IMG/VR virus record: IMGVR_UViG_2695420430_000007
Length of the DNA: 5,707 nucleotides
Origin: a virus
Lineage: Duplodnaviria; Heunggongvirae; Uroviricota; Caudoviricetes
Reading direction: 5' to 3' (one strand)
Shown here: piece by piece, positions 1 through 5,707 of the stretch
Layout of the letters: each line of letters begins with the position of its first letter
How positions within the stretch are numbered: position 1 is the stretch's first letter
Made by a program: the position numbers and the translations under genes
Notes under the pieces: generated by a model
The model's input: only the letters and a program-made list of their open reading frames with translations
Database searches by the model: none
Told to the model about the DNA's origin: nothing

Positions 1-215
1 GTAACGACTGGCAGACGCTGGAGCTGGTGTTCACCGCCGGCAGTGCCACGGTTACTCCGAAACTGAATGGAGTGGCTGGCCCGGCATTCCAGGTTATAAA
101 AGACAGTCTGACACTGGGACTGAATGCGCTGACGCTGACGGATGTTACAAAAAATGCAGCGTATGGCGTTGAGATAGAAAGTCTGGTGCTGGAGATAAAT
201 GCACCCGCAGCATAA
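1..215 (+). CDS. 3' end of an unidentified phage late-region protein; gene starts upstream of the window
   Basis: Frame is open from the window start to TAA at 213..215. The translation (..NDWQTLELVFTAGSATVTPKLNGVAGPAFQVIKDSLTLGLNALTLTDVTKNAAYGVEIESLVLEINAPAA) is near-identical to the C-terminus of ORF 632..973. I do not recognise the family. Confidence 0.55.
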   Translation, partial: NDWQTLELVFTAGSATVTPKLNGVAGPAFQVIKDSLTLGLNALTLTDVTKNAAYGVEIESLVLEINAPAA

Positions 216-1420: not shown

Positions 1421-1627
1421 ATGGAAAAAATCACAACGGGTGTGTCATACACCACGTCAGCGGTGGGGACGGGATACTGGTTACTGCAGCTGCTGGACAA
1501 AGTCTCTCCGTCCCAGTGGGTGGCAATCGGTGTGCTGGGGAGTCTGCTGTTTGGCCTGCTGACGTATCTGACTAACCTTTATTTCAAGATTAAAGAAGAT
1601 AAGCGTAAGGTGGCGCGGGGAGAGTAG
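1421..1627 (+). CDS. S: Pinholin, phage 21 S21-like class II holin (68 aa)
   Basis: [68 protein letters not shown] aligns along its length with my recollection of S21 (..[51 protein letters not shown]). Two hydrophobic segments and a basic C-terminus. GGAG at 1406..1409. Confidence 0.9.
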
Positions 1628-2314: not shown

Positions 2315-2848
2315 ATGAACGAAAAAATAAAATACGGCCTGTCGGCTGCCGTTCTGGCGCTGATTGGTGCAGGTGCTTCTGCGCCTGAAATCCTCGACCA
2401 GTTTCTGGATGAAAAGGAAGGTAACCACACCACGGCATACCGTGATGGTGCGGGGATCTGGACCATCTGCCGTGGTGCCATTCTGGTGGATGGTAAGCCT
2501 GTTATTCCTGGCATGAAGCTGTCAAAGGAAAAATGCGACCGGGTTAATGCCATCGAACGTGACAAGGCTCTGGCATGGGTGGAGAAAAACATCCGGGTGC
2601 CGCTGACCGAACCCCAGAAAGCGGGGATCGCGTCATTCTGTCCGTACAACATTGGCCCCGGTAAGTGCTTCCCGTCGACGTTTTATAAACGAATTAATGC
2701 AGGCGATCGAAAAGGTGCCTGTGAGGCGATTCGCTGGTGGATTAAGGACGGTGGCAGAGACTGCCGTATCCGTTCAAATAATTGCTACGGTCAGGTCTCA
2801 CGGCGTGACCAGGAGAGCGCGCTGGCGTGCTGGGACATCGACAGATAG
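2315..2848 (+). CDS. R: SAR endolysin, T4-lysozyme-like muramidase (GH24), phage 21 R-like (177 aa)
   Basis: N-terminal Gly/Ala-rich weakly hydrophobic segment YGLSAAVLALIGAGASA typical of a signal-anchor-release domain. Catalytic motif E-x8-D-x5-T in EGNHTTAYRDGAGIWT. Overall resemblance to P21 R / RrrD lysozymes as I remember them. Confidence 0.88.
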   Translation: MNEKIKYGLSAAVLALIGAGASAPEILDQFLDEKEGNHTTAYRDGAGIWTICRGAILVDGKPVIPGMKLSKEKCDRVNAIERDKALAWVEKNIRVPLTEPQKAGIASFCPYNIGPGKCFPSTFYKRINAGDRKGACEAIRWWIKDGGRDCRIRSNNCYGQVSRRDQESALACWDIDR

Positions 2849-3183: not shown

Positions 3184-3651
3184 ATGAACCGTGTTCTGTG
3201 CGTGGTTATCATTGTCCTGCTGGTGGCCTGTGGTGCGCTTAGTCTGGGGCTGAATCATTACCGTGATCACGCCATCATCTACAAAGAGCAGCGCGATAAA
3301 AAAGCCAGTGAGCTGGAGCTGGCGAACGCGACAATTACTGATATGCAGATACGCCAGCGTGATGTCGCTGCACTTGATGCCAGATACTCGAGGGAATTAG
3401 CCGATGCGAGAGCTGAAAATGAAACTCTGCGTGCTGATGTTGCCGCTGGTCGTAAGCGCCTGCGGATCAACGCCACCTGCTCCGGTACCGTGCGTGAAGC
3501 CACCGGCACCTCCGGCGTGGATAATGCAACCGGCCCCCGACTGGCAGACACCGCTGAACGGGATTATTTCATCCTCAGAGAACGGCTGATGGCAATGCAG
3601 AAGCAACTGGAAGGAGCACAGGAATATATCCGTACCCAGTGTATACCGTGA
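3184..3651 (+). CDS. Rz: Rz i-spanin (inner-membrane spanin subunit), 155 aa
   Basis: From ATG 3184: [68 protein letters not shown].. matches my recollection of lambda Rz ([47 protein letters not shown]..). N-terminal TM helix then coiled-coil. The track ORF from 3127 is an upstream in-frame extension. Confidence 0.9.
   Translation: [155 protein letters not shown]
3404..3589 (+). CDS. Rz1: Rz1 o-spanin (outer-membrane lipoprotein), embedded in the +1 frame of Rz
   Basis: MRELKMKLCVLMLPLVVSACGSTPPAPVPCVKPPAPPAWIMQPAPDWQTPLNGIISSSENG: signal peptide with lipobox VSAC, proline-rich mature part, conserved PPAWIMQP..DWQTPLNGIIS as in lambda Rz1. Lies wholly inside Rz in another frame. Confidence 0.88.
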   Translation: MRELKMKLCVLMLPLVVSACGSTPPAPVPCVKPPAPPAWIMQPAPDWQTPLNGIISSSENG

Positions 3652-4116: not shown

Positions 4117-4431
4117 ATGCTACATGATCACGTGGCAGAATGTTTGGAGAAAAAAGGACTGTACCGGAGAGCAGCTGAACGATGGGCAAAAGTGATGGTA
4201 CAGCTAAGTGATGACCAGAAAAGAAAAGTGGCGGCACAGAAACGAGCAGAGTGTTTGCGTAAGGCGCGCCGGACTCCGGTTTCACCGGTGAACCTGACCG
4301 AAATAAAACAAGCGGTCAACAGACTACATTCTGAGTTGGGAATGGGATTTGAAGAGCGGCGGGTATTCCGACGATATAAAGGGACAGGAGAACAGAATAC
4401 GTCCGGAAACGCGCGGTCAAAAAAATGCTAA
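4117..4431 (+). CDS. PerC-family-like small basic protein (Pch-like candidate transcriptional activator), 104 aa
   Basis: GGAGG at 4106..4110, 6 nt before the ATG. N-terminal EKKGLYRRAAERWAKVM resembles the GLWRRAA..RW signature I recall for PerC/Pch. Family assignment from memory; needs an HMM or BLAST check. Confidence 0.55.
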   Translation: MLHDHVAECLEKKGLYRRAAERWAKVMVQLSDDQKRKVAAQKRAECLRKARRTPVSPVNLTEIKQAVNRLHSELGMGFEERRVFRRYKGTGEQNTSGNARSKKC

Positions 4432-4512: not shown

Positions 4513-4737
4513 TTAAGTAAACCTGTCTGAACAGGTGCTCTGGTCGTGTTTGTCTTTGTTGGGTACAAATTGAGAATATTTTTCATTAATTAATCTTCTT
4601 CTGCAGGCTTCAATAACCCACGCTGAAAAATTACCTGAACCTTTCAGGTCAAGAGCGATGTTAATTTGTTCAATTATCTGGTTTGGAAATCGGATGTTGC
4701 GGGTTGTTGTTCTGCGGGTTCTGTTCTTTGATGACAT
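4513..4737 (-). CDS. YlcI-like (DUF3950-like) small protein, 74 aa
   Basis: MSSKNRTRRTTTRNIRFPNQIIEQINIALDLKGSGNFSAWVIEACRRRL.. matches what I remember of E. coli DLP12 YlcI, which sits just upstream of the Nu1 homologue nohD there, as here. From memory, not a search. Confidence 0.55.
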   Translation of the reverse strand: MSSKNRTRRTTTRNIRFPNQIIEQINIALDLKGSGNFSAWVIEACRRRLINEKYSQFVPNKDKHDQSTCSDRFT

Positions 4738-4838: not shown

Positions 4839-4944
4839 TTATTTCTCGTGGTTTGATGGCGTACACACATGTCGTGATAAACCTCATGTAGATGATAATT
4901 ATTATCATTTTCGTGGGTCCTTTCCGGCGATCCGACAGGTTACG

Positions 4945-4956
4945 GGGCGGCGACCT
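4945..4956 (+). other. cos: cosN: lambda-type 12-nt cohesive-end sequence GGGCGGCGACCT
   Basis: 4881..4989 closely matches the lambda right-end/left-end junction as I recall it (..CGACAGGTTACG|GGGCGGCGACCT|CGCGGGTTTTCGCTATTTATGAAAATTTTCCGG). Similarity stops at ~4990 where cosB begins. Confidence 0.85.
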
Positions 4957-4991
4957 CGCGGGTTTTCGCTATTTATGAAAATTTTCCGGGA

Positions 4992-5093
4992 TCCATGTCC
5001 GGTTTCTCTTCAAGTTAACTATATGAAAAATATAAAAACAGGTCTTCTGTGAACCGGACATGAACAAAAAACAGACATGTAAACCGGACATGA
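4992..5093. promoter_or_regulatory. cosB-like region: three copies of AACCGGACATGA (two direct, one inverted) flanking an A/T-rich segment
   Basis: AACCGGACATGA at 5052..5063 and 5082..5093; inverted copy TCCATGTCCGGTT at 4992..5004. A/T-rich 5006..5050 lies between the inverted and direct copies, mirroring the lambda R3-I1-R2-R1 layout with a different repeat sequence. A partial copy CAGACATG sits at 5072..5079. Confidence 0.6.
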
Positions 5094-5139
5094 CCGGTTT
5101 TGTTGTGATTGTGAGGTGAGAGTTTTTGCGAGGTGAGGA

Positions 5140-5649
5140 GTGGCTACGCAGACTGAAGTTGCCAGGCATTTAAGTCTGACCGATCGCCAGCTTCGCAGAT
5201 TGCAGAAATTGCCGGGTGCCCCGATATCGAATAAGCGAGGGCAACTGGATCTGGATGCCTGGCGCGATTTTTACATATCGTATCTGAGGAGAAGTAAAAA
5301 CGATGTGCCTGATGGCGATAGCGAAGACGACTATGAGGAGAAATTGCTTATTGCCAGATGGGAACTGACAGCAGAACAGGCTGTTACACAGCAGTTAAAA
5401 AATGAGGTGTCAAAAGGAAAACTTATTGACACCGGGTTCTGTATTTTTGCCCTCAGTAAGCTGGCAATGGCGTTATCCAGTACGCTTGATTCCATCCCTT
5501 TATCCATGCAGCGACAGTTTCCTGATTTAACACCGCGCCATCTTGACCATCTGAAAACCCTTATTGCGAAGGGGGCAGATCAGTGTGCGCGGGCAGGGGA
5601 TAAATTACCGGATTTACTCGATGAATATATCAGAGCAACAACTGAATAA
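5140..5649 (+). CDS. nu1: Terminase small subunit, Nu1-like (169 aa), GTG start
   Basis: C-terminal part (DTGFCIFALSKLAMALSSTLDSIPLSMQRQFPDLTPRHLDHLKTLIAKGADQCARAGDKLPDLLDEYI) aligns with lambda Nu1 as I recall it (ETAFCTFVLSRIAGEIASILDGLPLSVQRRFPELENRHVDFLKRDIIKAMNKAAALDELIPGLLSEYI). N-terminal ~50 residues are divergent. GTG at 5140 is the first start after an in-frame TGA; GAGG lies immediately upstream. Confidence 0.85.
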   Translation: MATQTEVARHLSLTDRQLRRLQKLPGAPISNKRGQLDLDAWRDFYISYLRRSKNDVPDGDSEDDYEEKLLIARWELTAEQAVTQQLKNEVSKGKLIDTGFCIFALSKLAMALSSTLDSIPLSMQRQFPDLTPRHLDHLKTLIAKGADQCARAGDKLPDLLDEYIRATTE

Positions 5650-5707
5650 TATGATGGCTGCCGTTTCGGTTGCGCTGCAGCCTCTGGTCAGGGTTGTACC
5701 AATGACG
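5621..5707 (+). CDS. A: Terminase large subunit (gpA-like), first 29 codons; continues past the window end
   Basis: ATG at 5621 in a different frame from Nu1, overlapping its last 29 nt as in lambda. Translation MNISEQQLNNMMAAVSVALQPLVRVVPMT shares the MNIS start with lambda gpA and has no stop to the window end. Confidence 0.6.
   Translation, partial: MNISEQQLNNMMAAVSVALQPLVRVVPMT

Follow-up and report, generated by a model that had tools for sequence, protein, structure and literature searches.

The stretch of DNA analyzed here (hereafter the window) comprises 5,707 nucleotides of a Caudoviricetes virus record (IMGVR_UViG_2695420430_000007). Positions 4915-5100 constitute a full lambda-type cos in a packaging-start layout, with overlapping genes for a Nu1-family TerS and a gpA-family TerL located directly downstream (Table 1). 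A lambda-like cosQ-cosN segment containing GGGCGGCGACCT had been proposed in an earlier note on the window, and it is present at precisely the position given there. The cosQ heptamer is the same as that of lambda in both sequence and position, and the identical heptamer of the Sp4/Sp14 prophages was marked as cosQ by Asadulghani 2009 (Fig S8; PMC2669165). The cohesive end matches those of lambda, 21, and phi80 at 12/12 positions, its sequence carries a cos-site annotation in the DE3 and phage 21 records, and it is preceded by ACG and followed by CGCG (4942-4960), which places conserved CG dinucleotides on both of its sides. By analogy with lambda, the top strand would be nicked at 4944/4945 and the bottom strand at 4956/4957. 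Between cosN and cosB sits the AT-rich I2, including the critical bp 30-35, which are essential in lambda (PMC4856287).

Table 1. Features of the cos region and terminase genes of the window (bp 1 is window position 4945, the first base of the cohesive end)
Feature	Sequence	Window position	Strand	cos bp	Remarks
cosQ heptamer	GGGTCCT	4915..4921	+	-30 to -24	packaging-termination signal
cosN cohesive end	GGGCGGCGACCT	4945..4956	+	1-12	
I2 spacer		4962..4993	+	18-49	conserved core TATTTATGAAAATTT at 4970-4984
R3	CATGTCCGGTTT	4994..5005	+	50-61	proposed critical TerS site
I1, IHF-like	TAACTATATGAAA	5016..5028	+	72-84	
R2	AACCGGACATG	5052..5062	-	108-118	inverted relative to R3
R1a	AACCGGACATG	5082..5092	-	138-148	same orientation as R2, 30 bp away; accessory
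R1b	CATGACCGGTTT	5089..5100	+		degenerate copy, overlaps R1a
TerS		5140..5649	+	196	169 aa, GTG start at bp 196
TerS residues 1-55		5140-5304	+		predicted winged helix-turn-helix; recognition helix residues 15-22
TerL start (gpA family)		5621..5707	+		29-nt overlap with TerS end; runs off the window

When the window and lambda are anchored on the cohesive end, they agree at 29/31 positions upstream of it (bp -31 to -1) and at 33/33 positions from bp 13 to 45, after which identity drops to 3/20 over bp 46-65 and to 35/130 over bp 66-195. Upstream of cos, similarity to lambda (~90%) reaches at least window position 4700. The break falls at window 4989/4990, 4 bp short of the lambda R3 (bp 50-65). 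The earlier note was correct in its description of a lambda-identical left end followed by an abrupt switch, but the identity extends over the first 45 bp instead of ~30.

Beyond this break, where the R sequence of lambda is CGTTTCCtTTCT, the window contains repeats with a common 11-mer core (AACCGGACATG / CATGTCCGGTT), and its R sites read (T/C)CATGTCCGGTT(T/C). Three copies of AACCGGACATGA, one inverted and two direct, had been reported previously. Those at 5052-5063 and 5082-5093 are exact, whereas the inverted copy at 4993-5004 matches at only 11/12 positions, and a fourth, overlapping copy with a single mismatch (CATGACCGGTTT, 5089-5100) had been overlooked. The repeats are not a product of chance, as ACCGGACATG with no more than one mismatch has four matches against 0.30 expected and none of 200 shuffles reached four. 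Likewise, the 11-mer is confined to the cosB cluster in a related prophage of 29 kb. The two overlapping copies, R1a and R1b, form an imperfect palindrome with a terminator-like hairpin (RNA energy -9.3 kcal/mol), and R1b is probably dispensable. Between R3 and R2, the I1 segment differs from the complement of WATCAANNNNTTR by two mismatches and is a candidate IHF site, having the same position and core as those of lambda (TAACTTAATGTTT) and 21 (TAACTTTTTGTTT) at bp 74-86. A perfect YAANNNNTTGATW is found at I1 in the related loci L015, L021, and L026.

Two sets of relatives were used to assess the conservation of these features. The first consists of 13 loci from Escherichia, Klebsiella, Salmonella, Citrobacter, and Enterobacter, which were gathered by exact-protein look-ups and encode TerS proteins 61-99% identical to that of the window. 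The second derives from a scan of viral contigs that yielded 80 loci, all 99% identical, and is therefore informative for within-class variation only. Scanning genome contigs with the TerS alignment recovered just six loci, all of them distant and none enterobacterial. Among the 13 enterobacterial loci, R3 and R2 are present in every case with a constant start-to-start distance of 58 bp, and R3 begins at bp 50 in all except one, where it begins at bp 51. These two sites are the best-conserved segments of the entire cos (1.79 bits per position for R3 and 1.80 for R2), compared to a mean of 1.68 for the I2 core TATTTATGAAAATTT, 1.17 for I1, 0.98 for the cohesive end, and 0.36-0.66 for the spacers. 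The cosQ heptamer is found in 12/12 of the loci whose DNA covers its position (L030 begins at bp 28) and is unchanged across 45 distinct haplotypes. Within the class, where indels made ungapped comparison past ~bp 125 unreliable and motif searches took its place, R3 is perfect in 25/25 distinct haplotypes and R2 in 22/25, while R1a occurs in 24/25 (perfect in just 16) and R1b in 18/25. Only five of the 13 diverged loci retain R1a. R3 is thus the most constrained site among the haplotypes, which mirrors the hierarchy of lambda. Among complete E. coli genomes, 21% carry the class, and the cosB of the window is 100% identical in many genomes of O157:H7.

The TerS protein appears similarly divided. 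Its match to Pfam Phage_Nu1 (PF07471) scores 66.7 bits, exceeding the gathering threshold of 30, yet is confined to residues 49-149 (profile positions 62-162), whereas PHROG 57 spans the full length of the protein. By tblastn, the TerS proteins of lambda, 21, phi80, and N15 align only past residue ~59-73 with 39-46% identity, the alignments starting at TerS residue 64 for phage 21 gp1 and at residue 59 for N15 gp1. The comparison with these four phages suggested by the earlier note ended with a shared cohesive end in lambda, 21, and phi80, and with a TerS N-terminus that tblastn aligns to none of them. The N-terminal 58 residues alone returned nothing meaningful from Pfam, a Foldseek search of the PDB gave no significant match, and a profile search of PDB sequences yielded a spurious match only. 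This region is nevertheless predicted to adopt the same winged helix-turn-helix as Nu1, so the previously asserted dissimilarity to Nu1 holds for the sequence and probably not for the fold. The remainder of the protein is predicted to be the Nu1-type oligomerization and TerL-binding region. It had been called lambda-like, and it is indeed of the Nu1 type and alignable, albeit at an identity of just ~45%. TerL begins MNISEQQLNN..., and its full-length copy in locus L003 shares 71% identity with lambda gpA across 278 aa but has diverged in the first 30 residues. Since the TerS C-terminus is ~45% identical and the TerL N-terminus has diverged along with it, the pairing between the two subunits is probably non-lambda as well. 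We also considered whether this TerS might be an Rpp (PICI redirecting-packaging) protein, a TerS-like DNA-binding domain that lacks the TerL-binding C-terminus and is encoded ~100 bp from the cos of an island devoid of TerL. This is ruled out by its Nu1 C-terminal half and the adjoining downstream TerL; Rpp chains in the PDB have no sequence match to it.

One line of support for a separate specificity is the co-variation of the R sequence with the TerS DNA-binding domain. The sequence CATGTCCGGTT is paired with the recognition helix RQLRRLQK, which has Arg20, in seven loci, while CA(T/C)TTCCGGTT is paired with Asp20 or Asn20 in six enterobacterial loci, and distant members of the family adhere to the same rule between R subtype and residue 20. 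The subtype tracks the N-terminal domain of TerS and not its C-terminal half. For example, the TerS of P0011 is 93% identical at the C-terminus and only 65% identical in the DNA-binding domain. Mosaic TerS proteins place the same C-terminal half behind DNA-binding domains of the N15 type or the lambda/21 type. Based upon these pairings, we propose two putative sub-specificities, with G-type sites read by Arg20 and T-type sites by Asp20 or Asn20. However, the co-variation coincides with a division of the DNA-binding domain into two or three clades, and a residue of the wing (Leu/Met36 vs Tyr36) separates the loci in the same manner as residue 20. Consequently, the pattern reflects few independent events and does not pinpoint the contacting residue.

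When compared to characterized systems, the window shares with lambda its cosQ, cohesive end, and bp 13-45, as well as the positions of R3, I1, and R2 and a TerS gene located ~195 bp from the end with an overlapping TerL. The distance between R3 and R2 centers is also nearly equal (~60 bp in the window, compared with 61 bp for lambda and 59 bp for 21, using in-register sequences). The differences from lambda lie in the R sequence, in the orientation of R1, which in the window is that of R2 and which is optional among relatives, in the R3 core, which in lambda is ~3 bp farther from cosN, in a TerS N-terminus that neither BLAST nor Pfam could align, and in the first 30 residues of TerL. With neither an R sequence of the CGTTTCCtTTCT type nor a Nu1-type recognition helix, the window does not fit the lambda cosB class. 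The N15/Monarch group is likewise a non-lambda, non-21 class on a lambda-type cosN, and its definition is partly bioinformatic. Members of the Monarch group have a tripartite layout, while N15 itself contains only R3 and a remote rR2. Both the R sequence GAGGTTGTTGTT and the TerS DNA-binding domain of this group are unlike those of the window, and its R3 sequence (bp 48-59) was not found in the window. The earlier prediction of a cosB specificity different from lambda on a lambda-type nicking site is supported by several independent comparative lines.

Based upon these features, the locus is very probably the cos of a lambda-family prophage whose terminase operates as outlined below with a cosB specificity module of its own. 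TerS and TerL would assemble on concatemeric DNA, where a TerS dimer would bind R3 and the inverted R2 through its winged helix-turn-helix domains, the two sites being set face to face by an IHF-induced bend at I1, with R1a contributing affinity. TerS bound at R3 would then position the TerL nuclease on cosN for two nicks 12 nt apart, after which packaging would run rightwards until terminated at the next cos with the aid of cosQ. Changing the spacing of R3 and cosN by 3 bp is harmful in lambda, and since R3 of the window lies 3 bp nearer to cosN than the cores of lambda and 21, the docking geometry would have to differ somewhat. The segments cosQ, cosN, and I2 would be interchangeable with those of lambda, while a separate, co-inherited specificity module would consist of the TerS N-terminal domain together with the R sequence CATGTCCGGTT, in which case the terminase should select its own DNA and not that of lambda, and vice versa. 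Comparative data point to this being a distinct and common recognition class that is so far uncharacterized, although it may have been mentioned in earlier literature.

It is conceivable, and compatible with the preceding interpretation, that the site is of a functional type but belongs to a defective element, its cos being used in trans by the terminase of a related prophage, a situation already proposed for Sp4 of O157 Sakai. We regard this as a possible but not a favored scenario. Part of the window is duplicated internally, with an additional, truncated holin copy, residue 147 of the window's TerS is Asp in contrast to the Asn of all other family members examined, and many lambdoid prophages of the O157 type are defective (PMC2669165). 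On the other hand, cos, TerS, and the start of TerL are all intact, a region of strain MEI003 that is 99.5% identical leads into a complete set of lambda-like head and tail genes, and the Asp147 allele persists on 87 contigs.

A second and unlikely scenario is that the cos is genuine but has the same specificity as phage 21, an R core of CATGTC(C)GG being read by both types of TerS. Phage 21 has an identical cosN, the same R3-I1-R2 architecture at nearly equal spacing (annotated R3 50-65, I1 74-86, R2 107-122, gene start 189), and R sites (TTTCATGTCGGnCCTT) that have TCATGTC plus GG in common with those of the window. However, the similar cores (CATGTCGG against CATGTCCGG) correspond as CATGTC-GG against CATGTCCGG, which entails a one-bp insertion in addition to the 3-bp shift towards cosN. 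The DNA-binding domain of 21 gp1 is a close relative of Nu1, while that of the window has no BLAST-detectable similarity to it. Furthermore, differences at two base pairs and at a small number of helix residues suffice for >1000-fold discrimination between lambda and 21 (PMC4669245). Despite a similar core, the window thus lacks both the R sites of the 21 class (CaTGTCGGnCCT at bp 50-65, 107-122, and 150-166) and its gp1-type helix, and we infer from the sequences that its class is independent of phage 21, though the common CATGTC..GG may permit some cross-recognition. Phage 21 instead serves as a precedent for an altered cosB and an altered recognition helix with an unchanged nicking site. 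Lastly, it is highly improbable that the repeats are operators of a regulator encoded nearby (one of the PerC-like or YnfO-like proteins), or that they act at the RNA level upstream of the terminase genes, as hairpins or terminators: a scan does mark terminator-like hairpins at 5081-5100, where R1a and R1b pair, and at 4986-5002, but the 58-bp R3-R2 gap excludes a local hairpin, the distance of the repeats to cosN is constant even though the upstream genes differ among loci, their subtype varies with the DNA-binding domain of TerS, the R1b arm is absent from many relatives and satellite copies, and no promoter-like site was found in the scan.

A specificity module of this type should be of consequence for gene transfer, as packaging specificity determines which DNA a terminase moves between cells. 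The class includes effector-carrying lambdoid prophages of O157:H7, in which neighbors package defective prophages, and a shared cosB/TerS class among prophages predicts which of them mobilizes which. It also supplies a third, naturally diverged test case of a TerS winged helix reading R sites. The Sp4/Sp14 prophages of O157:H7 Sakai have the same cos (their ‘putative cos’) and Nu1, as their printed cos matches from cosQ to ...CCGGGATCCATGT and their Nu1 begins MATQTEVARHLSLTDRQLRRLQK. In that study (Asadulghani 2009, PLoS Pathog, Fig S8; PMC2669165), only cosQ, cosN, and an ‘IHF’ segment in I2 were marked and Nu1 was aligned with that of lambda; the cos alignment ends at the start of R3, and neither the cosB repeats nor a specificity class was described. 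Sp4 has a disrupted nu1 and was found packaged, which the authors credit to the Sp14 terminase (PMC2669165). The same R sites are also carried by five plaque-forming PhiR12 phages (host given as K-12 or E. coli C), whose TerS is 98.8% identical. A literature search found no description of these phages, and a paper on EHEC phages contained no cos data.

The module is portable as well, since satellite islands without a terminase carry precisely its segment from cosQ through R1a. In EcCICFT073, the prototype Gram-negative phage-inducible chromosomal island, the site cos2 (CFT073 minus strand, ~1,388,130-1,388,345) contains cosQ, cosN, I2, R3 (CATGTCCGGTTT), I1 (TAACCATATGAAA), R2, and R1a, and is almost identical to the cosB of PhiR12_1. 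The similarity stops just past R1a and R1b is missing. Islands with cos2 occur in 53 genomes. EcCICFT073 has no terminase genes, and its cos2 adjoins the Rpp-dependent cos1. Its discoverers identified no phage cosB in the island and found cos2 to be unneeded for transfer by lambda or phi80 (Fillol-Salom 2018, 2019), so the match would assign a testable function to a site they had left without one. Taken jointly, a new specificity class, a cosB and TerS domain that are mobile as a single module, two sub-specificities, and the origin of EcCICFT073 cos2 form a reading that we favor by a modest degree. If true, these islands would carry an Rpp-dependent cos for helpers of the lambda, 80, and 21 types in addition to a plain cos copied from a phage, and the second cos would allow packaging without Rpp by helpers of the class found in the window. 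This suggests that satellites may broaden their helper range by gathering cos modules of different specificity. In a related island, the cos of this class is instead accompanied by one of the N15/Monarch type. No rpp gene was found by sequence adjacent to the cos of the strain-135 island.

A lambda-type cos paired with a cognate winged-helix small terminase (TerS) is an already known kind of system, and the sequence considered here was printed earlier as a putative cos. What is new relative to the accessible literature is the definition of the window cosB, the sequence-based evidence that it represents a specificity class of its own, very common and divided into two subtypes, the apparent exchange of cosB and DNA-binding domain as a module, and the apparent identity of window-type cosB with cos2 of the satellite island EcCICFT073.

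The window corresponds to the late part of an E. coli lambdoid prophage; upstream of cos, similarity to lambda is ~90% and reaches at least window 4700. Ungapped identity drops after bp 45, so that the switch from lambda to non-lambda sequence at 4989/4990 is abrupt; it falls 4 bp ahead of the position of lambda R3 (bp 50-65; PMC9026076). The earlier note had recognized lambda identity past cosN, although its extent in the ungapped comparison is 45 identical bases rather than ~30. Beyond the switch, the 11-mer AACCGGACATG occurs exactly at 5052-5062 and 5082-5092, and its reverse complement exactly at 4994-5004. The three copies previously described, one of them inverted, are thus real, except that the inverted copy matches at 11/12 and that 5089-5100 holds a fourth copy, overlapping and degenerate by one mismatch. 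Four matches compare with 0.30 expected, a number reached in 0/200 shuffles, and outside the repeat cluster no copy of the 11-mer is found in the 29-kb locus of strain MEI003. We consider it very likely that the mechanism is that of lambda with a different key: with the DNA bent by IHF at I1, a TerS dimer would read R3 together with the inverted R2, R1a would contribute affinity, and R3-bound TerS would position the large terminase (TerL) for nicking of cosN 12 nt apart, while cosQ would act in termination.

Features of the window and its cos region (bp 1 = first base of the cohesive end; identity to lambda ungapped; bits per position from 13 enterobacterial loci; haplotypes from the window's own class)
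Feature	Window	bp	Sequence or remark	Identity to lambda	Bits	Haplotypes
Duplicated fragment	upstream part		esterase gene end and holin start			
Phage-21-type holin	1421-1627					
Lysozyme	2315-2848					
Rz	3184-3651					
PerC-family regulator gene	4117-4431					
YlcI/YnfO-family (DUF3950) gene	4513-4737		minus strand			
Flank including cosQ		-31 to -1		29/31		
cosQ	4915-4921		GGGTCCT		1.45	
Cohesive end	4945-4956	1-12	GGGCGGCGACCT	12/12	0.98	
Segment past cohesive end		13-45		33/33		
I2 core					1.68	
Segment		46-65		3/20		
Segment		66-195		35/130		
R3		50-61	CATGTCCGGTTT		1.79	25/25 perfect
I1		72-84	TAACTATATGAAA, IHF-like		1.17	
R2		108-118	AACCGGACATG, inverted		1.80	22/25 perfect
R1 (R1a)		138-148	AACCGGACATG			16/25 perfect
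R1b						18/25 present
Spacers					0.36-0.66	
TerS start		196	GTG			
TerS	5140-5649		169 aa			
TerL, gpA-type	5621-5707		first 29 codons			
R core, window	4994-5005	53-64 in lambda/21	CATGTCCGG			
R core, phage 21			CATGTC-GG			
R core, lambda			CGTTTCCG-TTCT			
R core, T-type of window family			CATTTCCGGTT			

This cosB is present in 1154/5426 complete E. coli genomes, with 100% identity in many O157:H7 strains. Among 50,697 phage genomes it is found only in the five deposited phages PhiR12_1 to _5 (stated hosts K-12 MG1655 or E. coli C), which have identical R sites and a TerS 98.8% identical to that of the window. In MEI003, a 99.5% identical stretch resides in a prophage whose immunity genes are dicA/dicC, and downstream of the stretch the lambda-like head and tail genes form a complete set. 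Asadulghani et al. (2009) presented a "putative cos" and Nu1 of the Sakai prophages Sp4 and Sp14 in their Figure S8 (PMC2669165), and the printed sequences are the window cos and the window TerS (MATQTEVARHLSLTDRQLRRLQK...); their alignment ends at the first R3 bases, leaving cosB unanalysed (PMC2669165). The same authors detected Sp4 DNA in particles despite its disrupted nu1 and ascribed this packaging to the Sp14 terminase acting on an identical cos (PMC2669165). The site may be functional while the element carrying it is defective, at decidedly less than an even chance; this would be compatible with a lambda-like mechanism.

For comparison with known cos sites, the left ends of lambda, 21, phi80 and N15 were set in register with the window, using the annotated phage 21 record as reference (R3 50-65, I1 74-86, R2 107-122 in opposite orientation, R1 150-166, TerS start 189). 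The distance between R3 and R2 centres is ~60 bp in the window, 61 in lambda and 59 in phage 21, and I1 reads TAACTTAATGTTT in lambda, TAACTTTTTGTTT in 21 and TAACTATATGAAA in the window. Unlike in lambda, the window R1 is oriented like R2 rather than R3, and the R3 core starts ~3 bp closer to cosN. A single extra base distinguishes the R cores both of lambda and the T-type and of 21 and the window. Furthermore, the specificities of the lambda/21 pair, like those of the window family, differ by T vs G at core position 4; in lambda/21 this is bp 56, one of two discriminating positions (PMC4669245). The alignment suggests that the R sites of lambda/21 and the window family share ancestry. On account of such kinship, a small probability is kept for cross-recognition with 21. 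We consider it improbable that the window cosB is a mere variant of the 21 class. We favor a window specificity independent of phage 21, and in all likelihood lambda terminase does not recognize the window cos. According to papers from the Feiss laboratory, the cosB types studied are those of lambda, 21, phi80, Gifsy-1, N15 and Monarch.

A protein search yielded full-length TerS relatives down to 43% identity, and upstream DNA was fetched for twelve of these as well as for the plaque-forming phage PhiR12_1; the recorded sources are Escherichia, Klebsiella, Salmonella, Citrobacter and Enterobacter, several loci coming from sequencing-run assemblies. All 13 enterobacterial loci (window counted) contain a forward and an inverted copy of xxxxTCCGGTT, exactly 58 bp apart from start to start, and the forward copy begins at bp 50 in 12 loci and bp 51 in one, despite differing cohesive-end sequences. 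I1 is a perfect IHF consensus (YAANNNNTTGATW) in three loci and has one mismatch in most others, and R1 is found in only 5/13. In the window's own class (86 loci, 25 distinct haplotypes), variable positions number 2/22 in R3 and R2 vs 13/38 in spacers (Fisher p = 0.035). Within the class, no site is more constrained than R3, which is also the critical site in lambda. It is scarcely credible that repeats so arranged are operators or hairpins unrelated to packaging. Among distant relatives sharing the MATQ-type TerS N-terminus (L008:135-160, L009:1155-1185 and L031:40-65, a set that includes Pseudomonas phage LPPA33, a Pseudomonadota MAG and a Logan contig), the R3-I1-R2 layout is replaced by tandem direct CCGGTTCCGGTT, lying 20-45 bp ahead of the TerS start; cosQ, cosN and I2 are still recognizable in L009.

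The N-terminal region of TerS had been described as unlike lambda Nu1, and in sequence it is: the Pfam Phage_Nu1 match is confined to residues 49-149, and in tblastn against lambda, 21, phi80, N15 and Gifsy-1 TerS aligns only from residues 59-73 onward (34-46% identity). The description does not extend to the predicted architecture. The AlphaFold model (mean pLDDT 74, ~80 over residues 1-50) has a strand, helices 4-10 and 15-22, a wing and helix 38-54; Foldseek places MerR-type winged helices at the top, along with one chain from the RppC-TerS-lambda complex, all of them non-significant. The full length of TerS is spanned by PHROG 57 ("terminase small subunit"). In hhalign, TerS can be aligned from end to end with a lambda/21/phi80/N15 profile, and the alignment sets Arg16 opposite lambda Arg17, Lys23 opposite Glu24, the lambda specificity residue, and Arg33 opposite Lys35, a lysine of the wing. 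Very probably, the modelled domain has the same fold as Nu1. The C-terminal domain is lambda-like as proposed, but only ~45% identical to Nu1. TerL is 71% identical to gpA overall with its first 30 residues diverged, and TerS-TerL pairing is probably class-specific as well. Codon 147 of TerS (5578-5580) encodes Asp (GAT), where 19/19 other aligned family members and 11/11 TerS of a second alignment (lambda, 21, phi80, N15 and seven search matches) have Asn; the exact Asp147 protein, an allele that may be mildly impaired or neutral, is present on 87 contigs vs at least 999 for the common allele.

R subtype and TerS co-vary. The seven loci with a G-type R sequence (CATGTCCGGTT or GATGTCCGGTT) all encode the recognition helix RQLRRLQK with Arg20, and the six with a T-type sequence (CA(T/C)TTCCGGTT) all encode Asp20 or Asn20. 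Distant members (LPPA33 and several metagenome genomes) obey the rule where the site is recognizable, with Asn, Asp or Ser accompanying TTCCGGTT and Lys accompanying GGCCGGTT. The subtype split amounts to two or three clades and position 36 in the wing (Leu or Met vs Tyr) divides likewise; hence, the co-variation supports a link between site and protein without naming the contact. The subtype tracks the N-terminal domain, not the rest of the protein. One relative with a T-type site (P0011) has 93% identity to the window TerS over residues 64-169 and 65% over residues 1-52. For P0030 and P0035, identity is 56-59% over the C-terminal half and 75% over the N-terminal domain; of these two, upstream DNA was fetched for P0030, and that locus has a G-type site. 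Natural chimeras place an N15-type (P0052) or lambda/21-type (P0060) N-terminus on a window-type C-terminal half, joined near the DYEEKLLIAR segment, and their sequences are evidence of domain-level recombination within terS. Given this tracking and these chimeras, DNA-binding domain and cosB appear to behave as one exchangeable module, with its left edge at bp 45/46 and its right edge near TerS residue 55-64.

Terminase-less satellite islands carry exactly the window cos module. EcCICFT073 cos2 (L040:3130-3345, minus strand; NC_004431.1 ~1,388,130-1,388,345, strain CFT073) comprises cosQ, GGGCGGCGACCT, I2, CATGTCCGGTTT, TAACCATATGAAA, AACCGGACATG and AACCGGACAT in minus-strand order, matching PhiR12_1 cosB almost base for base until similarity stops right after R1a. 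The block common to satellites and window, ~4913-5091, is the predicted functional unit, with R1b outside it. Cos2 plus flank occurs in 53/5426 complete E. coli genomes. Fillol-Salom et al., whose two papers are the only ones in the searchable literature to mention this cos2, could identify no phage cosB in EcCICFT073; they reported that cos2 was dispensable for its transfer by lambda and phi80 and that transfer was abolished on deletion of both cos sites. An EcCICFT073-like island of 11 kb, located at tRNA-Pro in strain 135, encodes an integrase, replication helicase, PerC, lambda E-like capsid and D-like decoration protein, with no terminase and no rpp gene detectable by sequence. It contains two convergent cos sites (L039:12965-13580, NZ_CP080260.1): the first matches the window from cosQ through R1a, then diverges and is followed by an extra T-subtype site, AACCGGAAGTG; the second, on the minus strand, has an N15/Monarch-type cosB (GGTTGTTGTTTAAT and inverted ACAACAACC). 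This island gives the impression of a satellite that accumulates cos modules differing in specificity, here two. PerC-family genes of satellite islands lie directly upstream of capsid genes; in the window, the PerC-family and YlcI/YnfO genes lie between lysis cassette and cos.

Ahead of TerS is the direct repeat TTGTGAGGTGAG and TTGCGAGGTGAG (5109-5120 and 5126-5137); the second copy supplies the TerS Shine-Dalgarno sequence, and the first looks like a duplicate. A partial tandem duplication (1-224 vs 759-982, 99% identity; 246-545 vs 1159-1458, 95%) takes in the end of the esterase gene and the start of the holin as well as the intergenic region, resulting in a truncated extra holin copy at ~510-628; the region measures 5090 bp in most matching genomes, vs 5707 bp in the window.
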